30,775 nt of DNA from a virus. Lineage: Duplodnaviria > Heunggongvirae > Uroviricota > Caudoviricetes. Position 1 is the first letter of the stretch, and each line of letters starts with the position of its first letter. This document shows, piece by piece, positions 1,247 through 24,409 of the stretch. The stretch is taken from the IMG/VR virus record IMGVR_UViG_2877958089_000005; one strand, given 5' to 3'. The notes under the pieces were generated by a model. That model had not been told where the DNA came from and ran no database searches. It saw only the letters and a list, made by a program, of their open reading frames with translations. Both the position numbers and the translations under genes were made by a program.

Positions 1247-1585
1247 TTAATTACAAAGGGCTGTAGCGGCATCAATCACCGGTGAAATTGAAATTTTAAC
1301 GCCGTCATACTCAGGGTCATCCTTCCATACGTCATCTAAGTTAGACCCCTCCAGCTTTCCTGATTTAACAGCATCTACCGCCATGCCATTCAGAGGATAT
1401 CTATCATCAGTTTTGATGTCATACACAAAAGCATAAGCACGGTTAACACATGATACCTTTGCCTTTTCAAAGGTTAGAGGCCACTTGTCACCATATGCAG
1501 CGCCGTCTATCTCTTTAAACTTCTCAGCGGCTATGACTGAGGAAGAAAGTGCAATGCAGACTATCGCAAATATAAACTTTTTCAT
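1247..1585 (-). CDS. Secreted/periplasmic small protein, DUF2511 (YebY-like) family candidate; moron between cI and int
   Basis: 112 aa; N-terminal signal peptide MKKFIFAIVCIALSSSVIAAE; C-terminal ...AATALCN; pattern GDKWPL...C...YPLNG...GK...DDP resembles YebY/DUF2511 as I recall it; SD AGGAG upstream of ATG 1583-1585. Confidence 0.6.
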   Translation of the reverse strand: MKKFIFAIVCIALSSSVIAAEKFKEIDGAAYGDKWPLTFEKAKVSCVNRAYAFVYDIKTDDRYPLNGMAVDAVKSGKLEGSNLDDVWKDDPEYDGVKISISPVIDAATALCN

Positions 1586-4494: not shown

Positions 4495-6717
4495 TTGGCT
4501 GTTCAATTCGCTTATCCGTGGAACGTCCCACGGTCGGCAATCTCCAGCCCATACCTTACTTATGAGCAACAGCATCGCCGCGACCGTATGTTCGCGGCTT
4601 TGCTGCATGCGAAAAAGGTGCTTTCTCTCCAGCCCGACTGCGTGCGGTTAGATGTTTATCGCACTGCTGCGGTGCTGGAGCAAAATCAGGGTAGTCAACG
4701 AGCCAATGCATTTTTAATCAGCTTCTGCAAAAAGGCATTGCCGCGTCTTGAACTGGTCGCAAAAAAATACGAATGCGCTGGTATCAACAGCAAGGTATCA
4801 ACCGCTGTTTTTGGAAGTCATTTTGATACTCAGCAAATGCAATATCTGTCGTCACGCATGGTTAATATGGTCGCCCGATATAACCGTCTCCCGGACATGT
4901 CGCGCGCTGATGTTGACCTGTTGGCCGCTGATATTGCTAATTTCATTCGTGGTGAACTTGCCAACATTAATGACCACGGATTCGGCGAGCTTAAAACGCT
5001 GTACACCTGGTATATTCGTGCTGGCTTTATTTCCCTCCAATTCAACGTTATCCCACCACATTGGGAGCGGGTTGAAAAAAAATATGTCGGTGCGGATGAA
5101 ATCGCACCGGCTATCGCCAAAATGTTTAACGATGGGTGGTGGCGCGGTCGTTTGCGCCGTGTTGCAGCTACGTGGCGCGAACACCTGCAAATTGCAGTCG
5201 GCAACGTCAGTAAGAAAAAAAACACTTACGCGAGTAAAAACTGCGTGACTGACTGGCGTGAACAAAAGCGCCGCACTCGTGAATTTCTCAAAGGTCTGGA
5301 TCTCGAAGACGAAGACGGCAACCGTATCAGCCTAATTGAAAAATATGATGGCTCAGTTGCTAACCCTGCGATTCGCCGCTGTGAGCTCATGACCCGCATT
5401 CGTGGGTTTGAAAACATCTGTAATGAGCTCGGTTATGTCGGTGAGTTTTACACTCTAACCGCGCCGTCAAAATATCACGCCACGACTAAAGCCGGTTACC
5501 GTAACAGCAAATGGAGCGGTGCCAGCCCGGCTGACACGCAAAACTATCTAACCGGTATCTGGGCGCGTATCCGTGCCAAACTACATCGGGAAGATGTCCG
5601 TATTTTCGGTATTCGTGTCGCCGAGCCCCATCACGACGGCACTCCACACTGGCACATGCTGATGTTCATGCTGCCGGAAGATGTTGAATATGTTCGCTCC
5701 ATCGTCCGTAAATACGCATGGAAAGAAGACCGCCACGAACTGAAAAGCGATAAATCCAAAAAAGCACGTTTCCACGCCGAGTCCATTGACCCGGAGAAAG
5801 GCAGCGCAACCGGCTATGTTGCTAAATACATTTCAAAAAATATCGACGGTTATGCTCTCGATGATGAAACCGATGATGAAAGCGGTGAGCTGCTGAAAGA
5901 GACAGCCCCCGCCGTTTCAGCATGGGCTGCGCGCTGGCACATCCGTCAGTTTCAGTTTATTGGTGGTGCGCCGGTGACGGTTTACCGTGAGTTGCGTCGC
6001 CTCGCTGATACCGAAACCGCGCACGGTCTGAGCGTTGAGTTTGCCGCCGTCCATGATGCCGCCGACGCTGGTGACTGGGCTGGTTATGTTAATGCTCAGG
6101 GTGGGCCGTTTGTCCGTCGCGATGATTTACAGGTGCGCACACTGTATGAACCGCGTACCGAGCTTAATCAGTACGGTGAGGAAACGGTATGTATTAAGGG
6201 GGTCTACGATTCCTCCATAGGTGCAGGAAGCCCGATTTTAACCCGGCTCACTCAGTGGAAGATTGTTCCGAAGCGTGCTGTTGATTTGGCCGTTGACCTT
6301 CAGGACGGCAAAGCCGTCCCTCGGAGTTCTGTCAATAACTGTACGGGAAGCGAAAGCGATCCACCGATACTGGATTTAACAAAACCACTGAGTCGGCGTG
6401 AAAGACGAGAATTAACCAACCGACTCAGGAAGCAAAAGCCAGCAGCACGGCGAAAATTCATCCACGGAACGGATGAGCAAAACGCAGCTATAGCTAAAAC
6501 TATCGATGAGATACATCTGACAACCGGCATTAATATCAGCCGGGGCGAAGCCCTGCACCTGATGGCCGGTGGTAAAAGTTGTTTTGATGGTAAATGGCTA
6601 CGCGGAACGGCCAAAGGAGAAATATTTTCCGCAGCACCATCGCATGAGGCTAAAGCTCGGAAAATCCTTAATCGTGTTGCGGCGATGGCTGAAGCATCAA
6701 AACCAATACATGAGTAA
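4495..6717 (+). CDS. A: Replication initiation endonuclease (P2 gpA-type rolling-circle initiator)
   Basis: 740 aa; HUH-like PHHDGTPHWHMLMF and tandem tyrosines in GYVAKYISKNIDG, as in P2 A. Track start 4495 is TTG after a G-rich SD-like run; first in-frame ATG is at 4588, so the start is uncertain. Confidence 0.9.
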   Translation: MAVQFAYPWNVPRSAISSPYLTYEQQHRRDRMFAALLHAKKVLSLQPDCVRLDVYRTAAVLEQNQGSQRANAFLISFCKKALPRLELVAKKYECAGINSKVSTAVFGSHFDTQQMQYLSSRMVNMVARYNRLPDMSRADVDLLAADIANFIRGELANINDHGFGELKTLYTWYIRAGFISLQFNVIPPHWERVEKKYVGADEIAPAIAKMFNDGWWRGRLRRVAATWREHLQIAVGNVSKKKNTYASKNCVTDWREQKRRTREFLKGLDLEDEDGNRISLIEKYDGSVANPAIRRCELMTRIRGFENICNELGYVGEFYTLTAPSKYHATTKAGYRNSKWSGASPADTQNYLTGIWARIRAKLHREDVRIFGIRVAEPHHDGTPHWHMLMFMLPEDVEYVRSIVRKYAWKEDRHELKSDKSKKARFHAESIDPEKGSATGYVAKYISKNIDGYALDDETDDESGELLKETAPAVSAWAARWHIRQFQFIGGAPVTVYRELRRLADTETAHGLSVEFAAVHDAADAGDWAGYVNAQGGPFVRRDDLQVRTLYEPRTELNQYGEETVCIKGVYDSSIGAGSPILTRLTQWKIVPKRAVDLAVDLQDGKAVPRSSVNNCTGSESDPPILDLTKPLSRRERRELTNRLRKQKPAARRKFIHGTDEQNAAIAKTIDEIHLTTGINISRGEALHLMAGGKSCFDGKWLRGTAKGEIFSAAPSHEAKARKILNRVAAMAEASKPIHE

Positions 6718-6777
6718 TTCATATCCATATCATGCACATACAGCAATCGCTCTATTCGTTTTTTTTCTTCCCATCTT

Positions 6778-6809
6778 TTGCCAATACATGCTACTGTATA
6801 AATATACAG
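6778..6809 (+). promoter_or_regulatory. SOS-regulated promoter: -35 TTGCCA (6778-6783) with a perfect LexA box CTGTATAAATATACAG (6794-6809) overlapping the -10 region
   Basis: Exact CTGT-N8-ACAG palindrome with AT-rich core; SD GGGAGGG and ATG 6831 immediately downstream. Confidence 0.8.
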
Positions 6810-6830
6810 TAACCCTATGGGAGGGATTTC

Positions 6831-7013
6831 ATGGTTGGCGAACATTTCAGCCGAACGCAGCAAAAGTGGGCTTGTGTGCAATTTATTGCCGAGGTATCTC
6901 TGATTGCAAACTGCAAGCCATCAGACTTAAAGCTCGCGCTCACTCTCATTGCAGACCTAGCAAACAGCGAAAATAACGAAACCGAAGATGATAATTTTTA
7001 TAAGGCTGATTAG
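6831..7013 (+). CDS. Small LexA-controlled protein, candidate Tum-like antirepressor N-terminal module
   Basis: 60-aa ORF directly downstream of the LexA box with SD GGGAGGG; ends at TAG 7011-7013, in the same frame as the following DinI-like ORF. Confidence 0.55.
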   Translation: MVGEHFSRTQQKWACVQFIAEVSLIANCKPSDLKLALTLIADLANSENNETEDDNFYKAD

Positions 7014-8328: not shown

Positions 8329-8532
8329 TGCGCGCCAGCGGTGGTGCGTATTATTAAAAATTATCGTCTGAGAACGTCGTGACGGCGCTGTAGTGGCCGG
8401 GTGTGATCGTGGGCGCGTGGTGCGTCTGTGGCGTGGTGCTAAAGGATGGGATCAGTTGCACAATTTTACGGTTTCGCTTTGGCTAATATCCATATTGAGA
8501 CTTTATGTTCCCCACAACAGTTGGAGGCTTTA

Positions 8533-8757
8533 ATGGATAACTATCATATTACAAAAGATGGCGATAAGTGGAAGTTGCAAAAAGAGGGCAATGACCGCCC
8601 TAGCAAGACCGCGACCACAAAGGCCGAGCTGATTAAAACAACATCTGAGTTTATGTCGAACAAAACAGGCTCGGTCAAAATTCACAAGGAAGATGGGAAA
8701 ATTCAGGAAGAACGCACTTATCAGAGAAAAGATGATCCTAAAAAGTCTAAAGGCTAA
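8533..8757 (+). CDS. DUF2188-like small protein (moron between cos and Q)
   Basis: ATG 8533 preceded by GGAGG; 74 aa MDNYHITKDGDKWKLQKEG...IHKEDGKIQEERTY..DDP..KG fits my recollection of the DUF2188 pattern. Confidence 0.55.
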   Translation: MDNYHITKDGDKWKLQKEGNDRPSKTATTKAELIKTTSEFMSNKTGSVKIHKEDGKIQEERTYQRKDDPKKSKG

Positions 8758-16676: not shown

Positions 16677-17106
16677 CGCCGTGCCGCAGCTCCGAAATAA
16701 TCCCGATATGCTGCGCCTTTTTGCCGACAACGGCCATACCGATTCCCGACTGGCGAGCTCGCTGTCGTTTGAAAAGGTGTACGTGCTTAACGTGGTGGTG
16801 ACCGACTTCACCGGTGACCTTGATTTGATATTCGTGCCGGTGCAGGCGTGGCTGCGTGAACATCAGCCGGACATTATGACCACCGACGACGGGCGGGAAA
16901 AAGGATTCACCTGGATTATTGATATCAATAACGACGATTCGCTCGATATCAGTATCAGCCTGAGGCTCACCGAGCGCACACTCGTCAAAGAGGTCGACGG
17001 CGCGCTGCACGTCAGCTATGCCCCTGAGCCGCCACTGCCTGAGCCGGTGACGCGCCCGGTCGAGCTGTACGTTAACGGCGAACTGGTGAGTAAGTGGGAT
17101 GAGTGA
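16630..17106 (+). CDS. R: Tail completion protein R
   Basis: 158 aa; position and size as P2 R. Confidence 0.8.
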   Translation: MNSMQKHKSLRKALINAVPQLRNNPDMLRLFADNGHTDSRLASSLSFEKVYVLNVVVTDFTGDLDLIFVPVQAWLREHQPDIMTTDDGREKGFTWIIDINNDDSLDISISLRLTERTLVKEVDGALHVSYAPEPPLPEPVTRPVELYVNGELVSKWDE

Positions 17107-17545
17107 ATTAACCGTGCTGCAGGAACGCCTTGCCGGTCTGATTGCCAGCCTGTCACCGGCGGCACGTCGGCAAATGGCGGCTGAGATTGCGAAAAAGCTG
17201 CGTACCAGTCAGCAACAGCGTATCAAGCGCCAGCAGGCACCCGACGGCACCCCGTATGCGGCACGAAAGCGCCAGCCGGTGCGGAGCAAGAAAGGTCGGA
17301 TTAAACGTGAAATGTTCGCCAAACTGCGCACCAGTCGCTTTATGAAAGCCAAAGGCAGCGACAGTGCGGCGGTGGTGGAGTTTACCGGCAAGGTGCAGCG
17401 CATGGCGCGGGTTCATCAGTACGGCCTCAAAGACCGGCCAAACCGTAACAGCCGGGATGTGCAGTACGAGGCGCGCCCGTTGCTCGGTTTCAATAGTATA
17501 GATATGAGAATTATTGAGCGGTTAATAATTGGGGCTTTGGATTAA
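17099..17545 (+). CDS. S: Tail completion protein S
   Basis: 148 aa; overlaps the R stop; the C-terminal codons run into the AT-rich cargo junction, so the C-terminus may have been remodelled by the insertion. Confidence 0.8.
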   Translation: MSELTVLQERLAGLIASLSPAARRQMAAEIAKKLRTSQQQRIKRQQAPDGTPYAARKRQPVRSKKGRIKREMFAKLRTSRFMKAKGSDSAAVVEFTGKVQRMARVHQYGLKDRPNRNSRDVQYEARPLLGFNSIDMRIIERLIIGALD

Positions 17546-17573
17546 TTATGATCTAATATATTATTTTGTGATG

Positions 17574-17602
17574 AGGCTGGATAAACACCAGCCTTGATTT
17601 TA
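17574..17602 (+). terminator. Hairpin terminator at the S/cargo junction
   Basis: aggctgg-ataaacac-cagcct stem-loop followed by tgatttta; lies between convergent S (+) and the HIT gene (-). Confidence 0.5.
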
Positions 17603-18244
17603 TAGTTTGAAATCTGCGTAATTATCAATAACCTCTAGAACACCGCTGATGTTGTTATCTCTGCGCCAATTCCAATTGCCATGTATCAAATTTGCATTAG
17701 AATAAAGATATCTAAGGAACTGAGATGGTAAGAGTGGTTTGTTGCATAAAAATTCATCATAACTATTACTCATATACCACACATATCCATTTTTAATGTC
17801 AAAACTTAAATTCTCACCTTCAATTTTCTTAAAGTTAATTTCTTTATTTAGAGCATTTTCAAACTCTTGCGTATAATAAACACAGTGTATATGAGCGTGA
17901 GAAATGCACCCTCCCGAACGATCTATATTTTCACCTGCTCCGCTTTCAAAGAAAATTAGAGATCTACCAGATTGGTGGATTATAAATTCATTAAGTTCTC
18001 GCAGAATCTCCTTGCCATTACTCCGGGTATCTCGATCAAGAGCAGCAAAGGAGTTGATATGCCGCTTAGGAATCAGCATCACATGCGAATTATTTAGCGG
18101 GCCAATACTAGGTACAATTAGAAAATCATTTGTTTCTGCAATGATATTTTTCTTGTCATTTACGATTTCATCGTATCCTTTGATAAGGCTAATGCCATTT
18201 ATTTCATCGCATATTCCACAGAACGAATTACAAGAATTATTCAC
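17600..18244 (-). CDS. HIT (histidine-triad) family nucleotide hydrolase/transferase-like protein with a C-terminal extension; cargo gene 2
   Basis: 214 aa. Histidine triad H116-A-H-I-H120-C-V (GGCISHAHIHCVYY); upstream Hint-like FLIVPSIGPLNNSHVMLIPKRHI and N-terminal NSFCGIC, comparable to E. coli HinT as I recall it (ETIFSKII / THILIIPN / VYHIHMHLLGG). GTG start at 18244 with SD CAGGAGA 8 nt upstream, inside the 3' end of the TM gene. Confidence 0.8.
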   Translation of the reverse strand: MNNSCNSFCGICDEINGISLIKGYDEIVNDKKNIIAETNDFLIVPSIGPLNNSHVMLIPKRHINSFAALDRDTRSNGKEILRELNEFIIHQSGRSLIFFESGAGENIDRSGGCISHAHIHCVYYTQEFENALNKEINFKKIEGENLSFDIKNGYVWYMSNSYDEFLCNKPLLPSQFLRYLYSNANLIHGNWNWRRDNNISGVLEVIDNYADFKL

Positions 18245-18803
18245 GTTTATTGTCTCCTGGTTTTTTAGGGAGCAATTTTTCAGCCCAAGATGCGAGTCGG
18301 CTTAGAACTAAGTCTGAAAAATATCCTAATATAAAACAAATCGAGAATGCAATTTTGGTCTTACCATGCCCTTTAATGGAGGATACAAACGTATCCGGAG
18401 ATAATAGCGTATAAGAACAAAAAGCCACTAAAGCAGCTAAGAACGGAATAAAAATCCTCCAGTAGAACTTATGGGATTCCCAAGGGAAATTATACTGATT
18501 GTTTTTCCCTCTAGCAGTTACTCTATAAAACCATTTTGCATTATACACCCACCCTCCAAAAAAACCGCCAAGAATAGAAAACAAAGATATTTTATTATTA
18601 TATGTCAGCTCAAAAACAAATTGAAAAAGAAAGGCGAGAATGCAACCTATTACAAAAAGAACTATTAAATAAGCAAATTCGAATTTTATTTGTTCACAAT
18701 CGTTATTAAAATAAGGCACAACCTCATCATCGCCTAAGGTTTTTTTTCTTTCAGTCATTTGCCAAACACCTTCATTTTTTACTGTGAGCCAGGGTAATTG
18801 CAT
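18237..18803 (-). CDS. Polytopic inner-membrane protein (about 4 TM helices); cargo gene 1
   Basis: Hydrophobic segments FAYLIVLFVIGCILAFLFQFVF, ISLFSILGGFFGGWVY, FYWRIFIPFLAALVAFCSYTLL, IAFSICFILGYFSDLVL; basic C-terminal tail. Track start 18809 is TTG; first ATG is 18801-18803. Stop overlaps the HIT gene start region. Confidence 0.7.
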   Translation of the reverse strand: MQLPWLTVKNEGVWQMTERKKTLGDDEVVPYFNNDCEQIKFEFAYLIVLFVIGCILAFLFQFVFELTYNNKISLFSILGGFFGGWVYNAKWFYRVTARGKNNQYNFPWESHKFYWRIFIPFLAALVAFCSYTLLSPDTFVSSIKGHGKTKIAFSICFILGYFSDLVLSRLASWAEKLLPKKPGDNKRE

Positions 18804-18934
18804 ATTCAACTTGGCTATTCTAATTAATTCTCACAAGATTTCATAGATGTTGAGTAGACCTCTCAGAAGTTGTTTCATTCCTCACAGAATCCATCTCGAT
18901 TGCCACTAATCTTGCCGGGCGTCATCCTTCCCAT

Positions 18935-19570
18935 ATGAAAAATCTAAATTCTTTGCAAGAAATCGCACGCGCGATCCGAAATCTCATCCGTACCGGCATC
19001 GTTAGCGACGTAGACCTCAAGGAGGGGCTATGTCGTATCCAGACCGGGGGGATGCAAACCACTTGGCTGAACTGGCTGACCACCCGAGCCGGTCGTTCGC
19101 GGACGTGGTGGGCTCCCTCGGTCGGTGAGCAGGTTCTGCTGCTGGCAATCGGTGGCGAGCTTGATACCGCTTTCGTGCTGCCGGGTATTTTCTCCGACGA
19201 TAATCCCGCCCCGTCTGCCTCGGCGGATGCGTGGCATGTGGCTTTCCCTGATGGTGCGGTCATTGAGTACGAGCCCGAAACCGGCGCGCTGACGGTCAGC
19301 GGCATAAAAACGGCCGACGTGACGGCATCGGAGTCCATCACCGCAACCGTACCGCTGGTACTGGTGAAAGCCTCGACCAGTATCACCCTCGACACCCCGG
19401 AGGTGATTTGCACCAATAAGCTAACGACGGCGACGCTTGAGGTGCAGAAAGGCGGCAAGATGAGCGGCAATATCGAACATACCGGCGGGTCACTGTCGTC
19501 TAATGGCAAGGTACTCCACACCCATAAACACCCGGGCGACAGCGGCGGGCAAACGGGGGCACCGTTATGA
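18935..19570 (+). CDS. V: Baseplate spike protein V
   Basis: 211 aa; MKNLNSLQEIARAIRNLIRTGIV...GKVLHTHKHPGDSGGQTGAPL closely resembles P2 gpV. Confidence 0.9.
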   Translation: MKNLNSLQEIARAIRNLIRTGIVSDVDLKEGLCRIQTGGMQTTWLNWLTTRAGRSRTWWAPSVGEQVLLLAIGGELDTAFVLPGIFSDDNPAPSASADAWHVAFPDGAVIEYEPETGALTVSGIKTADVTASESITATVPLVLVKASTSITLDTPEVICTNKLTTATLEVQKGGKMSGNIEHTGGSLSSNGKVLHTHKHPGDSGGQTGAPL

Positions 19571-22491: not shown

Positions 22492-23084
22492 TGAAACCTG
22501 TTTTTGATGAAAATGGACTGGCTACAGTGCCGGGTGATATGCGTTGTTTTTATTATGATGCAGTAACGTATGAATATACGGGCTGGTCTGATGAATATAT
22601 TAATACTGGTGTAAGTATGCCCGCCTGTTCCACTGGTATTGACCCGGGCGAAAACATTCCGGGAAAAGTGGCAGTATTTACAGGTAAGGGATGGAGCCAT
22701 GAAGAAGACCATCGCAATGAGACTGTTTACTCAATCGAAAATGGTGCTGCTGTTACAGTGGATTATATCGGTGCCATCAAAAACGGTTATGTCACGCTTT
22801 CACCGTTAACGCCATATGATAAATGGGATGGTGAGAAATGGGTGACAGATACTGAGGCACAACACGGTGCCGCAGTAGAAGCGGCAGAAGCACAGCGCCA
22901 GTCACTGATTGATGCAGCAATGGCTTCCATCAGTCTGATTCAGCTGAAATTACAGGCCGGGCGGAAGCTGACGCAGGCAGAAACCACCCGGCTTAACGCC
23001 GTGCTTGATTACATTGACGCGGTGACGGCAACAGATACGAGCACCGCGCCGGATGTCATCTGGCCTGAACTGCCGGAGGCGTAG
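22491..23084 (+). CDS. G: Tail fibre assembly chaperone (P2 gpG / Mu U type), expressed orientation
   Basis: 197 aa; start overlaps the H stop; C-terminus ...PDVIWPELPEA parallels the C-terminus of the inverted copy (...PDIEWPTPPAVQAR). Confidence 0.8.
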   Translation: MKPVFDENGLATVPGDMRCFYYDAVTYEYTGWSDEYINTGVSMPACSTGIDPGENIPGKVAVFTGKGWSHEEDHRNETVYSIENGAAVTVDYIGAIKNGYVTLSPLTPYDKWDGEKWVTDTEAQHGAAVEAAEAQRQSLIDAAMASISLIQLKLQAGRKLTQAETTRLNAVLDYIDAVTATDTSTAPDVIWPELPEA

Positions 23085-23637
23085 GCCATTCAATATCTGG
23101 CGCACCGGAAGTATCGACCAGTTCCAGTGCGTCCAGATAATCCAGCCACAAATTATATTGCGCCAGTTCCTCACCTTTCAGGCGACCAATCGCCGCTTTA
23201 CCAGGCCATTGCTTACTGTTTATGTATTCGNNNNNNNNNNNNNNNNNNNNNNNNNNNNNNNNNNNNNNNNNNNNNNNNNNNNNNNNNNNNNNNNNNNNNN
23301 NNNNNNNNNNNNNNNNNNNNNNNNNNNNNNTCGCCGCTTTACCAGGCCATTGCTTACTGTTTATGTATTCGTTGACCTGATTAATCAATTGCTGCTTTTC
23401 CAGTTCGGCTGCGGCAATTTGTTCCTCATGAGTTGGCGGTGGAATATCAATCCATGCTGGCATTCCGTCGATGACACCTCTGTACTTTCCTTCTGGTGCT
23501 TCCTTCATAAATTCAGCGGCAGCAGTGTCGTCAATTTCGATTCCATCATCAGGCCATTTCCCCGCTTCCTGATAAGCAATTTTAAGCTCCACAGGGAAAA
23601 ACGCATTTTTATCAGCACTGAAAATATATTTCTGCAT
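23056..23637 (-). CDS. Alternative tail fibre assembly chaperone (U'-type), silent orientation; interrupted by a 100-N assembly gap
   Basis: 193 aa including X residues from the N-run; coordinates and length are only approximate because of the gap. Confidence 0.6.
   Translation of the reverse strand: MQKYIFSADKNAFFPVELKIAYQEAGKWPDDGIEIDDTAAAEFMKEAPEGKYRGVIDGMPAWIDIPPPTHEEQIAAAELEKQQLINQVNEYINSKQWPGKAAXXXXXXXXXXXXXXXXXXXXXXXXXXXXXXXXXXEYINSKQWPGKAAIGRLKGEELAQYNLWLDYLDALELVDTSGAPDIEWPTPPAVQAR
23231..23330. other. Assembly gap (100 N) flanked by an exact 41-bp duplication
   Basis: tcgccgctttaccaggccattgcttactgtttatgtattcg occurs at 23190-23230 and again at 23331-23371, either side of the N-run; consistent with overlapping contig ends scaffolded with a spacer. 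Confidence 0.9.
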
Positions 23638-23639
23638 TT

Positions 23640-23993
23640 CTACCGTCCTATCGAAATATAACTGAATCTGTATTGTTGAGAGATATCACTGATTGCCACG
23701 CGCCACGCTGAATTACTGATATGTTCAAAATTTACAGATAAAACCAGCGGTGCAGGATTCGACGGTTCTGACTGAACGGCATCAGACATGACACTGACTG
23801 AAACAAGCGGTTGATTAGGGAATGGTATAGGGAAGTGTCCACTGATAATGCGGGTCGTGTTCCCTGAAAAAGTGCCAAACTGAACAATATATCCACCTGG
23901 TAGCCTGAACCATCCCGAGCCAGAAGCGAATGCTCCCATATCCGGTATCTGATTTTCCCCTGTCCCCACATTCCTTCTTGCCGCTTCTCCCAA
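23640..23993 (-). CDS. Alternative tail fibre C-terminal segment (Sv'), promoterless in this orientation
   Basis: Reading the minus strand through the right hix-like site gives LGEAARRNVGTGENQ..., sharing the junction LGEGA/LGEAA with H; it would be fused in frame to the H constant region after inversion. Confidence 0.65.
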   Translation of the reverse strand: MGEAARRNVGTGENQIPDMGAFASGSGWFRLPGGYIVQFGTFSGNTTRIISGHFPIPFPNQPLVSVSVMSDAVQSEPSNPAPLVLSVNFEHISNSAWRVAISDISQQYRFSYISIGR

Positions 23994-24010
23994 ACCAACC
24001 TTTTAGAAAA
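23985..24010 (-). repeat. hix/gix-like inversion crossover site (right inverted repeat)
   Basis: ttctcccaaaccaaccttttagaaaa; its reverse complement ttttctaaaaggttggtttgggagaa shares TTGGTTTGGGAGAA with the left site. Confidence 0.7.
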
Positions 24011-24064
24011 TGCAGATATTCCGTTCAGCTGGCATGTTCCCGACTTTTTACCGGGTTATTTCTC

Positions 24065-24311
24065 ATGTTTATCGGTTATGTACGTGTATCAACAAATGAC
24101 CAGAACACCGCATTACAGCGAAATGAACTGGAGTGCGCAGGATGTGAGCTGATTTTCGAAGATAAAATCAGCGGCAAAACATCAATCAGACTGGCCGGGG
24201 CTAAAGAGGTTACTCAGAACCTTGTCAGAGGGCGATACGCTTGTGGTCTGGAAACTGGATCGCCTCGGGTATCTCAACGCTATACAAACAATTTCCCGCA
24301 TCCGTTGCTGA
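24065..24311 (+). pseudogene. Remnant of a Hin/Gin/Pin-family serine DNA invertase (frameshifted and C-terminally deleted)
   Basis: ATG 24065: MFIGYVRVSTNDQNTALQRNELECAGCELIFEDKISGK... resembles the Hin N-terminus, including the catalytic Ser in YVRVSTNDQ; the conserved GDTLVVWKLDRLG is encoded one frame over from about 24231, implying a 1-nt insertion; similarity ends near 24270 and FI begins at 24410, so over half the gene, including the DNA-binding domain, is missing. Confidence 0.7.
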
Positions 24312-24321
24312 TGTCTCAATG

Positions 24322-24346
24322 TGTCAGACATCGCCCAACACTGACA
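24322..24346 (+). promoter_or_regulatory. Dyad-symmetric element upstream of FI (candidate late-activator site or remnant of the invertase 3' region)
   Basis: tgtcag-N13-ctgaca perfect 6-bp inverted repeat about 65-90 bp upstream of the FI start; spacing does not match the P2 TGT-N12-ACA consensus. Confidence 0.25.
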
Positions 24347-24409
24347 AATAGCCCCTCAACAGACCAGCCAGGACAATAACACTTGCCCACTAACCACGGA
24401 GTTAACCGG

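Follow-up and report, generated by a model that had tools for sequence, protein, structure and literature searches.

The CWF19L1/Drn1 and CWF19L2/Cwf19 proteins, which carry the CwfJ module, are eukaryotic cofactors of the intron-lariat spliceosome and of debranching. CWF19L1 is an ataxia gene, and to our knowledge the biochemical role of the CwfJ domains is unexplained. In the histidine triad (HIT) protein HINT1, the usual Hint features are a C-x-x-C, an H-x7-H ('PK-x-H') and, three residues ahead of the triad, a Ser or Cys; the middle histidine of the triad is the nucleophile. RexA/RexB, from a prophage, joins a soluble sensor to a protein with four transmembrane (TM) segments. Here we describe a pair of genes, encoding a HIT protein and a 4-TM protein, in the IMG/VR virus record IMGVR_UViG_2877958089_000005 (Duplodnaviria; Heunggongvirae; Uroviricota; Caudoviricetes). 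The whole stretch analysed, 30,775 nucleotides (nt), is called the window and is a complete phage-186-like prophage of E. coli. The HIT protein is a stand-alone prokaryotic form of the C-terminal module of CWF19L1/L2 and Drn1, the extension behind its HIT core being a CwfJ_C_2-like domain, and we hold the identity statements on this HIT-CwfJ protein as a whole with high confidence. The features of the HIT gene are as follows.

17600..18244, minus strand: HIT gene, GTG start, 214 amino acids, with the CwfJ_C_2-like domain at the C-terminus.
17840..18244, minus strand: HIT core, residues ~1-135, with C9-x-x-C12, H54, H62, FFE100SG, C113 and H116-A-H118-I-H120 (invariant alignment columns; PDB profile matches HIT proteins over positions 24-142).
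17885..17899, minus strand: histidine triad codons, HAHIH, residues 116-120 (translation; invariant in alignments).
17603..17827, minus strand: CwfJ_C_2-like domain, residues 140-214, with Y154, P173-S-Q175, R178 and W191-N-W193.

An earlier note on this DNA, made without database searches, had claimed an intact His-x-His-x-His motif with Hint-like elements upstream of it. Translation confirmed the motif, which reads H116-A-H118-I-H120-C-V and fits H-phi-H-phi-H-phi-phi, and the upstream CxxC and PK-x-H region are present as well. The triad was invariant in 37/37 close relatives and in 34/34 broader ones. The other invariant core residues of the close family are C9, C12, H54, H62, E100 and C113, and its C-terminal part adds G153-Y154, N168, P170, P173, Q175, F176, R178, Y181 and W191-N-W193-R194. 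Three HIT-clan Pfam families were tested for membership (PF01230, PF11969 and PF04677), and three models matched residues ~27-130 with more than their gathering score: CwfJ_C_1 (PF04677; 28.4 bits, cut-off 21, E 1.6e-6, residues 30-130), DcpS_C (28.5 bits, cut-off 24) and HIT (PF01230; 23.4 bits, cut-off 21.5). The protein shows the alpha+beta HIT fold, and its AlphaFold2 (AF2) model, with a pLDDT of 90.8, has the C-terminal domain folded with confidence. Since the triad is invariant, catalysis, beyond mere binding, appears to matter for this protein. Its catalytic competence is plausible, and H118 would be the nucleophile if the protein works as Hint and Fhit do.

Another possibility could be that this is a housekeeping Hint orthologue with a mis-called long open reading frame (ORF), and the RefSeq label of the protein is merely 'HIT family protein'. 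This explanation is refuted and keeps virtually no probability. Judging from its homologues, the ORF is a real gene under selection: the close homologues form 89 protein clusters with 37-81% identity, most of them covering 94-100% of its length, and the length of 214 amino acids is kept in most clusters. An AGGAG lies 9 nt upstream of the GTG start. Moreover, the C-terminal domain folds with confidence in the model, and the NCBIfam HinT model gives 16.4 bits against a cut-off of 130; HinT-type proteins have a single domain and ~110-150 amino acids. The pair occurs in only 8 of 5426 complete E. coli genomes (at least 99% identity), every time as prophage cargo, and in the window it sits in an island of ~35% GC. 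The earlier note was thus right in setting this protein apart from ordinary Hint orthologues.

The extension of roughly 90 amino acids beyond simple Hint proteins, also described there, was borne out. A family profile built from 37 homologues matched solved HIT proteins over positions ~24-142 only, and since the match stops at ~142, the protein has ~80-90 residues (~135-214) that simple Hint proteins lack. The two stretches singled out in this part, WYMSNSYDEF and HGNWNWRRDN, both lie within the C-terminal 75 residues. The extension does have a known counterpart outside simple Hint proteins: structure comparison, a PDB profile search and hhalign all point to homology with the CwfJ_C_2 domain of CWF19L1/L2 and Drn1. 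The best row of the structure comparison table was the C. elegans CWF19L2 homologue (8ro1_L2: 19.1, 187, 2.6). The further rows were human CWF19L2 (6id0_U: 18.1, 185, 2.6), the C. elegans CWF19L1 homologue (8ro1_L1: 17.8, 171, 2.4), the 'cell cycle control protein' of a thermophile fungal spliceosome (9l5r_U: 16.0, 184, 2.9) and S. pombe Cwf19 (3jb9_c: 15.5, 178, 2.6); ordinary HIT proteins all scored 11 or less, with about 100-125 as the second value. Foldseek ranked the same structures in identical order. As occurs in the CwfJ module, where CwfJ_C_1 is joined to CwfJ_C_2, the HIT protein has its two domains in the same three-dimensional arrangement.

In support of the structural result, a profile of the last 75 residues only, built from 32 diverse relatives, gave a single match at E<=10 among 177,635 PDB sequences. 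This was human CWF19L1 450-511 (E 0.0057), which is Pfam CwfJ_C_2, and the alignment pairs Y154, P-x-Q175, R178 and W193 of the HIT protein. The same profile aligned by hhalign to vertebrate CwfJ_C_2 fragments with a probability of 82% (E 1.1e-5, 53 columns) and identical residue pairing. Note that Pfam CwfJ_C_2 (PF04676) did not match the window HIT protein as a single sequence, and matched just 2 of the 32 relatives weakly (best E 0.093). Since the single sequence stays below threshold, CwfJ_C_2 membership is supported at the level of fold and profile only. The conserved residues of Drn1 include C269, C272, H311, H319, H366 and H368, and R459 and W474 are among those needed for lariat-intron turnover (PMC4105757). 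The spacings of the former are 3, 39, 8, 47 and 2, with 15 from R to W; in the HIT protein C9/C12/H54/H62/H116/H118 are spaced 3, 42, 8, 54 and 2, and R178 to W193 is again 15. From spacing and alignments together, we infer that these residues correspond in the two proteins.

This kinship bears on the idea that the HIT enzyme takes part in nucleic-acid processing, acting on branched or 2'-5'-linked RNA or DNA (a group II intron lariat, retron msDNA or phage RNA), either unconnected with immunity or using the TM protein as a mere anchor. Its nearest structures are by a wide margin CWF19L1/L2 and Cwf19, the Drn1 CwfJ residues required for lariat turnover match invariant residues of the HIT protein, and Cwf19L2 is in contact with both the branch helix and the junction of the lariat (PMC6461851). 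But the HIT protein is mildly acidic overall (isoelectric point, pI, 5.5; family median 6.4), the loci examined held no intron, retron or reverse transcriptase (RT) gene, and the fusions and neighbours of the broader family, presented next, point to nucleotide metabolism. We regard this idea as highly improbable.

The HIT-CwfJ protein belongs to a much broader family of long HIT proteins. An exhaustive profile search returned 3,714 representative proteins at E<=1e-3 and 2,098 at E<=1e-10, mostly of 200-240 amino acids and aligned end to end. The broad set, with 22-45% identity, keeps C9, C12, E100, H116, H118, H120, Y154, Q175, R178 and W193 invariant, and H62 is near-invariant. We inspected 11 distant genomic loci (L024-L034; proteins P0240-P0356) from DPANN archaea, a candidate phyla radiation (CPR) bacterium, Pirellulales, an actinobacterium and uncultured Gammaproteobacteria. 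The TM partner was present in 0/11 of them, and most of these relatives retain the CxxC, the HAHIH, the PSQxxR and the WxW at +15. Since the C-terminal signature residues are kept without a TM partner, the domain appears to be integral to the enzyme rather than a dedicated TM-binding domain, which speaks against the suggestion that the extension serves to bind a partner. The same conservation argues that the CwfJ_C_2-like domain belongs to the catalytic or substrate-binding unit, in which it is likely to be a substrate-side lid.

Some members of the broad family are fused to a methyltransferase (P0264) or a NUDIX domain (P0333), or are duplicated in tandem (P0234), and neighbours include a Zeta/AAA_33-type kinase and a ThyA-like gene with a methyltransferase domain. 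In two of the distant loci, a canonical short HIT gene overlaps upstream (L024, 3802-4278; L027, 2364-2804). These fusions and neighbours are weak evidence for nucleotide substrates. The long HIT family may also be informative on where the eukaryotic CwfJ module came from.

In the close family, the HIT gene has a constant companion.

18237..18758, minus strand: 4-TM partner gene, 173 amino acids, ATG at 18758 (the RefSeq start), supported by homologous clusters and an AF2 model.

An alternative TTG upstream, at 18809, would yield 190 amino acids. The TM gene lies upstream of the HIT gene, and its end overlaps the first 8 nt of it (GTGAATAA). The overlapping reading frames imply translational coupling of the two genes, with HIT as the distal gene of the operon and a conserved inner-membrane protein as the product of the first. 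The TM family comprises 120 homologous clusters and has no Pfam match; when the TM protein was scanned against PADLOC, NCBIfam and Pfam, no usable result emerged, and PHROGs lists both proteins of the pair only as 'unknown function' (phrog_23000 and phrog_22917). The AF2 model of the TM protein has four long helices (pLDDT 78). Conservation is highest in a basic loop, K75WFYRVTARGK...HKFYWR101, and in the C-terminal amphipathic helix, and the invariant blocks of the family are GGFxGGW, KWFYRVTA-G, W..HK.YWR and G-F-D. Positive charge clusters in the 72-100 loop and in the C-terminal tail, a distribution that implies an N-in/C-in topology. A role as lysis regulator (holin or antiholin) was considered for the TM protein and rejected, since its gene and the HIT gene lie on the opposite strand and the pair also turns up outside phages.

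The TM gene was found directly upstream of the HIT gene in 22/22 genomic loci and in 9/9 IMG/VR viral-contig loci of the close family, the latter being the contigs that include upstream DNA; these counts are not dereplicated and represent ~14 distinct contexts. The genomic loci come from E. coli, Enterobacter, Pantoea, Pseudomonas, Vibrio, Halomonas, Burkholderia, Herbaspirillum, Thalassospira and Desulfoplanes, and span Gamma-, Beta-, Alpha- and Deltaproteobacteria. In most of them the two genes overlap by 8-14 nt, and in a few they abut or overlap by 1-23 nt. These results show that the TM-HIT pair moves as one unit. On one metagenomic contig (L041, 1-1289), TM3-TM4 is fused in frame to the HIT domain (P0233, 339 amino acids), and TM1-TM2 forms a separate ORF in a different frame.

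In the window, the pair occupies a swapped segment, with the following features.

17493..19022, no strand assigned: swapped variable segment, comprising the tail-completion 3' end, the TM-HIT cassette and the gene V 5' end.
17099..17545, plus strand: tail completion gene (186 O / P2 S homologue; PHROG 26, RefSeq), with its last 17 codons in the swapped segment.
18935..19570, plus strand: baseplate assembly protein V gene (PHROGs 6142 and 9992, RefSeq).
17572..17596, no strand assigned: terminator-like hairpin, rich in G+C and with a T run behind it, where the tail-completion and HIT genes converge (consensus scan only).
18817..18844, minus strand: sigma-70-like promoter candidate upstream of the TM gene (consensus scan, 9/12).

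The window ceases to resemble phage 186 and its sister prophages in E. coli at 17492, in the tail-completion gene, and homology resumes at 19023, in gene V; phage 186 itself has 69 bp between these two genes. The core of the cassette has a GC content of ~31-39% (mean about 35%), and the flanks ~60%. Since the boundaries of the segment lie inside the flanking genes, the arrangement fits replacement via homologous recombination; as a result of the swap, the last 17 codons of O and the 5' end of V are new. A search for insertion scars in the window found just a 14-nt imperfect inverted repeat, probably due to chance.

The slot was surveyed in 70 complete E. coli genomes with the tail-completion gene at at least 90% identity. 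It is empty in phage 186 and in E. coli strain SA53-3, and in sister prophages it holds a pentapeptide-repeat protein or a 287-amino-acid PD-T4-7-like protein (PADLOC 4.8e-9); the fourth state is the TM-HIT pair, in the 8 genomes mentioned above. Among the sister loci, L053 (3047-3883, minus strand) and L055 (3010-3873, minus strand) are occupied and L054 is empty. The three occupied slots that were examined all carry their cargo on the minus strand, against the direction of the late genes. These varied contents make the tail-completion/V slot a cargo hotspot of 186-like E. coli prophages; Vassallo et al. described two defence hotspots in P2, and this slot is not one of them (PMC9519451).

About 9 of the 14 distinct contexts of the pair are associated with mobile genetic elements or defence genes. 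A Pantoea-type P2-like phage carries its copy of the pair, with 66% identity, flanked by gpA/DinI and the portal gene, and the gpA-portal interval is P2 defence hotspot #1 (PMC9519451). An Enterobacter prophage remnant also has the pair in its tail-completion/V slot, with Septu PtuA/PtuB (E 7.5e-90 and 2.8e-61) 4 kb away. It adjoins the S24 repressor gene in Pseudomonas prophages and follows a Mks/Wadjet-like operon in Halomonas. Its other neighbours are an AbiU-like AIPR protein (2.9e-33), two GmrSD-like proteins with IS21, PDC-M02B in a Zot-bearing element, and an integrase. In the Halomonas locus (L006, 7663-8625), a metallo-beta-lactamase-fold protein matching Pfam Anti-Pycsar_Apyc1 is encoded ~1 kb downstream of the pair; it may be a host enzyme or an anti-defence protein.

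Could the pair instead serve the phage in counter-defence, with the HIT enzyme destroying host immune signals such as cyclic oligonucleotides or ADP-ribose-derived molecules? HIT enzymes do hydrolyse nucleotide conjugates, the gene is carried by a phage, and ThsC is a HIT protein of some Thoeris loci whose action on the signal was suggested by the PADLOC authors (PMC8565338). Against this stand the genes' orientation opposite to the late operon, in slots that otherwise hold defence genes, and the presence of the pair at non-phage chromosomal sites beside AbiU-like and GmrSD-like genes. The 4-TM partner is obligate, and we know of no signal-degrading counter-defence enzyme that requires a TM partner. 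Moreover, tblastn with the HIT protein found zero matches in 50,697 isolated phage genomes, which counts against a phage weapon; the same search found none in 72,556 plasmids. We consider counter-defence very unlikely. Between the two roles offered by the earlier note, immune signalling or anti-defence, a defence-related role fits the genomic company, and anti-defence is the less likely one given the obligate TM partner, the strand opposite the late operon and the chromosomal defence neighbourhoods.

In Thalassospira (L009), a TM-HIT cassette of 1.39 kb lies between 142-nt direct repeats (5162-5303 and 6695-6836) that are 93% identical. What has been duplicated is the 3' end of a TetR gene, of which a 49-amino-acid TetR_C fragment remains downstream; this looks like the insertion footprint of the minimal cassette. 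This duplication, together with the overlapping, two-gene and horizontally mobile nature of the cassette, would also suit a selfish addiction module of toxin-antitoxin (TA) type, in which the TM protein is the toxin, the HIT protein neutralises it, and the mobile element is stabilised without any specific anti-phage role. Small TM proteins are often toxins, and several validated E. coli prophage abortive-infection (Abi) systems are TA-like (PMC9519451). But known antitoxins need neither an invariant catalytic HIT triad nor a conserved substrate-side domain, and we find such a module unlikely. Note that the TA-like and Abi readings are compatible, so that it is partly a sub-case of the anti-phage explanation set out below.

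The neighbours also bear on lysogenic conversion or non-phage immunity, in which the HIT enzyme would detoxify a nucleotide antibiotic, as MccH-type enzymes do, or act on a nucleotide-activated envelope precursor, with the TM protein as anchor or transporter. There is a precedent in the MccH-type HIT hydrolases, which act on microcin C-like aminoacyl-nucleotides (PMC7157772). However, no microcin or nucleotide-antibiotic gene was present near the pair in any locus examined, and the neighbours that recur are those with a role in defence. No transporter family is matched by the TM protein, and similarity of the HIT protein to Cdh is no better than that to other HIT proteins and is far below that to CWF19. 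This role, too, we hold to be an unlikely one.

The low-GC mobile cassette, the shared cargo slots and the defence-gene neighbours support a different explanation, in which the TM-HIT pair is an anti-phage module that protects the lysogen by abortive infection or superinfection exclusion. Taken whole, with the mechanism proposed here, we put this forward tentatively, at somewhat less than an even chance. The pair would be expressed in the lysogen and restrict the incoming phage. The HIT-CwfJ enzyme would dock, on the cytoplasmic side, to the basic loop and the C-terminal helix of the TM protein, and would turn over a nucleoside monophosphate conjugate (NMP-X) via a covalent NMP-His118 intermediate. 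Candidates for NMP-X could be a dinucleoside polyphosphate, a nucleotidylated intermediate or a nucleotidylated nucleic-acid end. Its appearance or removal during infection would be coupled to the TM protein, acting as membrane effector or gate; the enzyme may either sense a phage-induced substrate or hold an activating nucleotide low until infection overwhelms it.

Several observations weigh against the anti-phage module. About 5 of the ~14 contexts (Pseudomonas sp. 9AZ, Burkholderia, Thalassospira, Desulfoplanes and Pseudomonas chaetocerotis) have no evident mobile-element or defence neighbour. The HIT and TM proteins match 0 of the 5027 models of PADLOC-DB 2.0.0 at E<=1, we found no published description of the TM-HIT pair, and the operon has no nucleotide-synthesising partner. 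The acidity of the HIT protein does not favour binding of a polymeric nucleic acid. The promoter candidate is a weak one, since sites of this kind were no more frequent in the scan than expected from shuffled sequence. Finally, the fusion on the metagenomic contig is given little weight because the TM gene is split there; it may be a genuine fusion or split variant, or else a frameshift or an assembly error.

A bolder version, which we rate as decidedly unlikely, would make the pair a new membrane-coupled immune family. In it, the intact CwfJ enzyme would sense, much as CWF19L2 does the lariat junction, a 2'-5'-linked or branched nucleotide or nucleic acid arising from infection, which His118 would cleave or nucleotidylate, and the 4-TM partner would then open. 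HIT enzymes and prophage-borne two-gene modules are kinds already known; the structural tie to spliceosomal CwfJ domains was unexpected.

The window contains other candidate cargo. A DUF2188 ORF (8446-8757, plus strand) lies between the replication genes and the portal gene, that is, in the position of P2 defence hotspot #1, and matches the PADLOC candidate PDC-S16 (E 1.3e-14), which makes it a second candidate defence gene of this prophage. A DUF2511 gene (1247-1585, minus strand) between the integrase and CI repressor genes has no PADLOC match and is probably further prophage cargo. In the plus-strand tail-fibre region (~23056-24379), two ORFs lie on the minus strand (23056-23637 and 23640-23993). 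The near-identical prophage of strain AST217 (L001, 23262-24625) has there, according to RefSeq, tail-fibre assembly genes in opposite orientations, besides a tail protein that is truncated and a recombinase with a frameshift, and it differs from the window by ~140 bp in this region. This suggests a decayed invertible, host-range switching segment.

If the pair protects lysogens, it would represent a defence family with a HIT enzyme and a membrane partner that is in no current catalogue, and the tail-completion/V slot of P2/186-like phages would be a third cargo hotspot worth mining. Whatever its function, it ties a prokaryotic long HIT family (~2,100 clusters at E<=1e-10) to the CwfJ domains of eukaryotic lariat turnover, and the bacterial homologue, being small and soluble and having its active site intact, offers an easy route to CwfJ-fold ligands and cleavage. 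Should the branched-nucleotide sensor prove true, it would provide the first tractable biochemical handle on the CwfJ domains of Drn1, CWF19L1 and CWF19L2, and would speak for a prokaryotic origin of the spliceosomal CwfJ module, given the full-length relatives in DPANN, CPR and other lineages.

Compared with known systems, the HIT protein differs from the hydrolases of the Hint/Fhit branch (HINT1, FHIT and E. coli HinT), with which it shares 11-23% identity, in its ~80-90 extra C-terminal residues, which form a second domain, in not being a core gene and in having a membrane partner. It shares the HIT superfamily with ThsC, an accessory protein whose genes accompany an anti-phage system ('Thoeris type II' in PADLOC; PMC8565338); unlike ThsC, it has another partner, no ThsA/ThsB neighbours and no PADLOC match at E<=1, the models being assumed to include ThsC. 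The location of the pair is comparable to that of the P2-like hotspot cargo (old, tin, fun and the PD-T4/PD-lambda systems), although the TM and HIT proteins are unrelated to those systems. Lambda RexA/RexB is the nearest analogy in function. The TM-HIT pair has no sequence relationship with it, but both join a soluble protein to a ~4-TM protein, are carried by prophages and lie in cargo or immunity regions, and in the Pseudomonas prophages the pair adjoins the repressor as rexAB adjoin cI.

The closest relatives remain the CwfJ proteins. Unlike them, the HIT protein is free-standing, with 214 amino acids and without a metallophosphoesterase-like, zinc-finger or RNA-recognition motif (RRM) N-terminal region. 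It occurs in a bacterial host with no spliceosome, has no Dbr1-like region, has no intron or RT genes nearby, and is paired with a 4-TM protein on mobile elements. It has the full invariant H-x-H-x-H, whereas the Drn1 paper lists two of those histidines as conserved. Like the CwfJ module, however, it passes the CwfJ_C_1 threshold, and its C-terminal profile matches the CwfJ_C_2 domain of CWF19L1.

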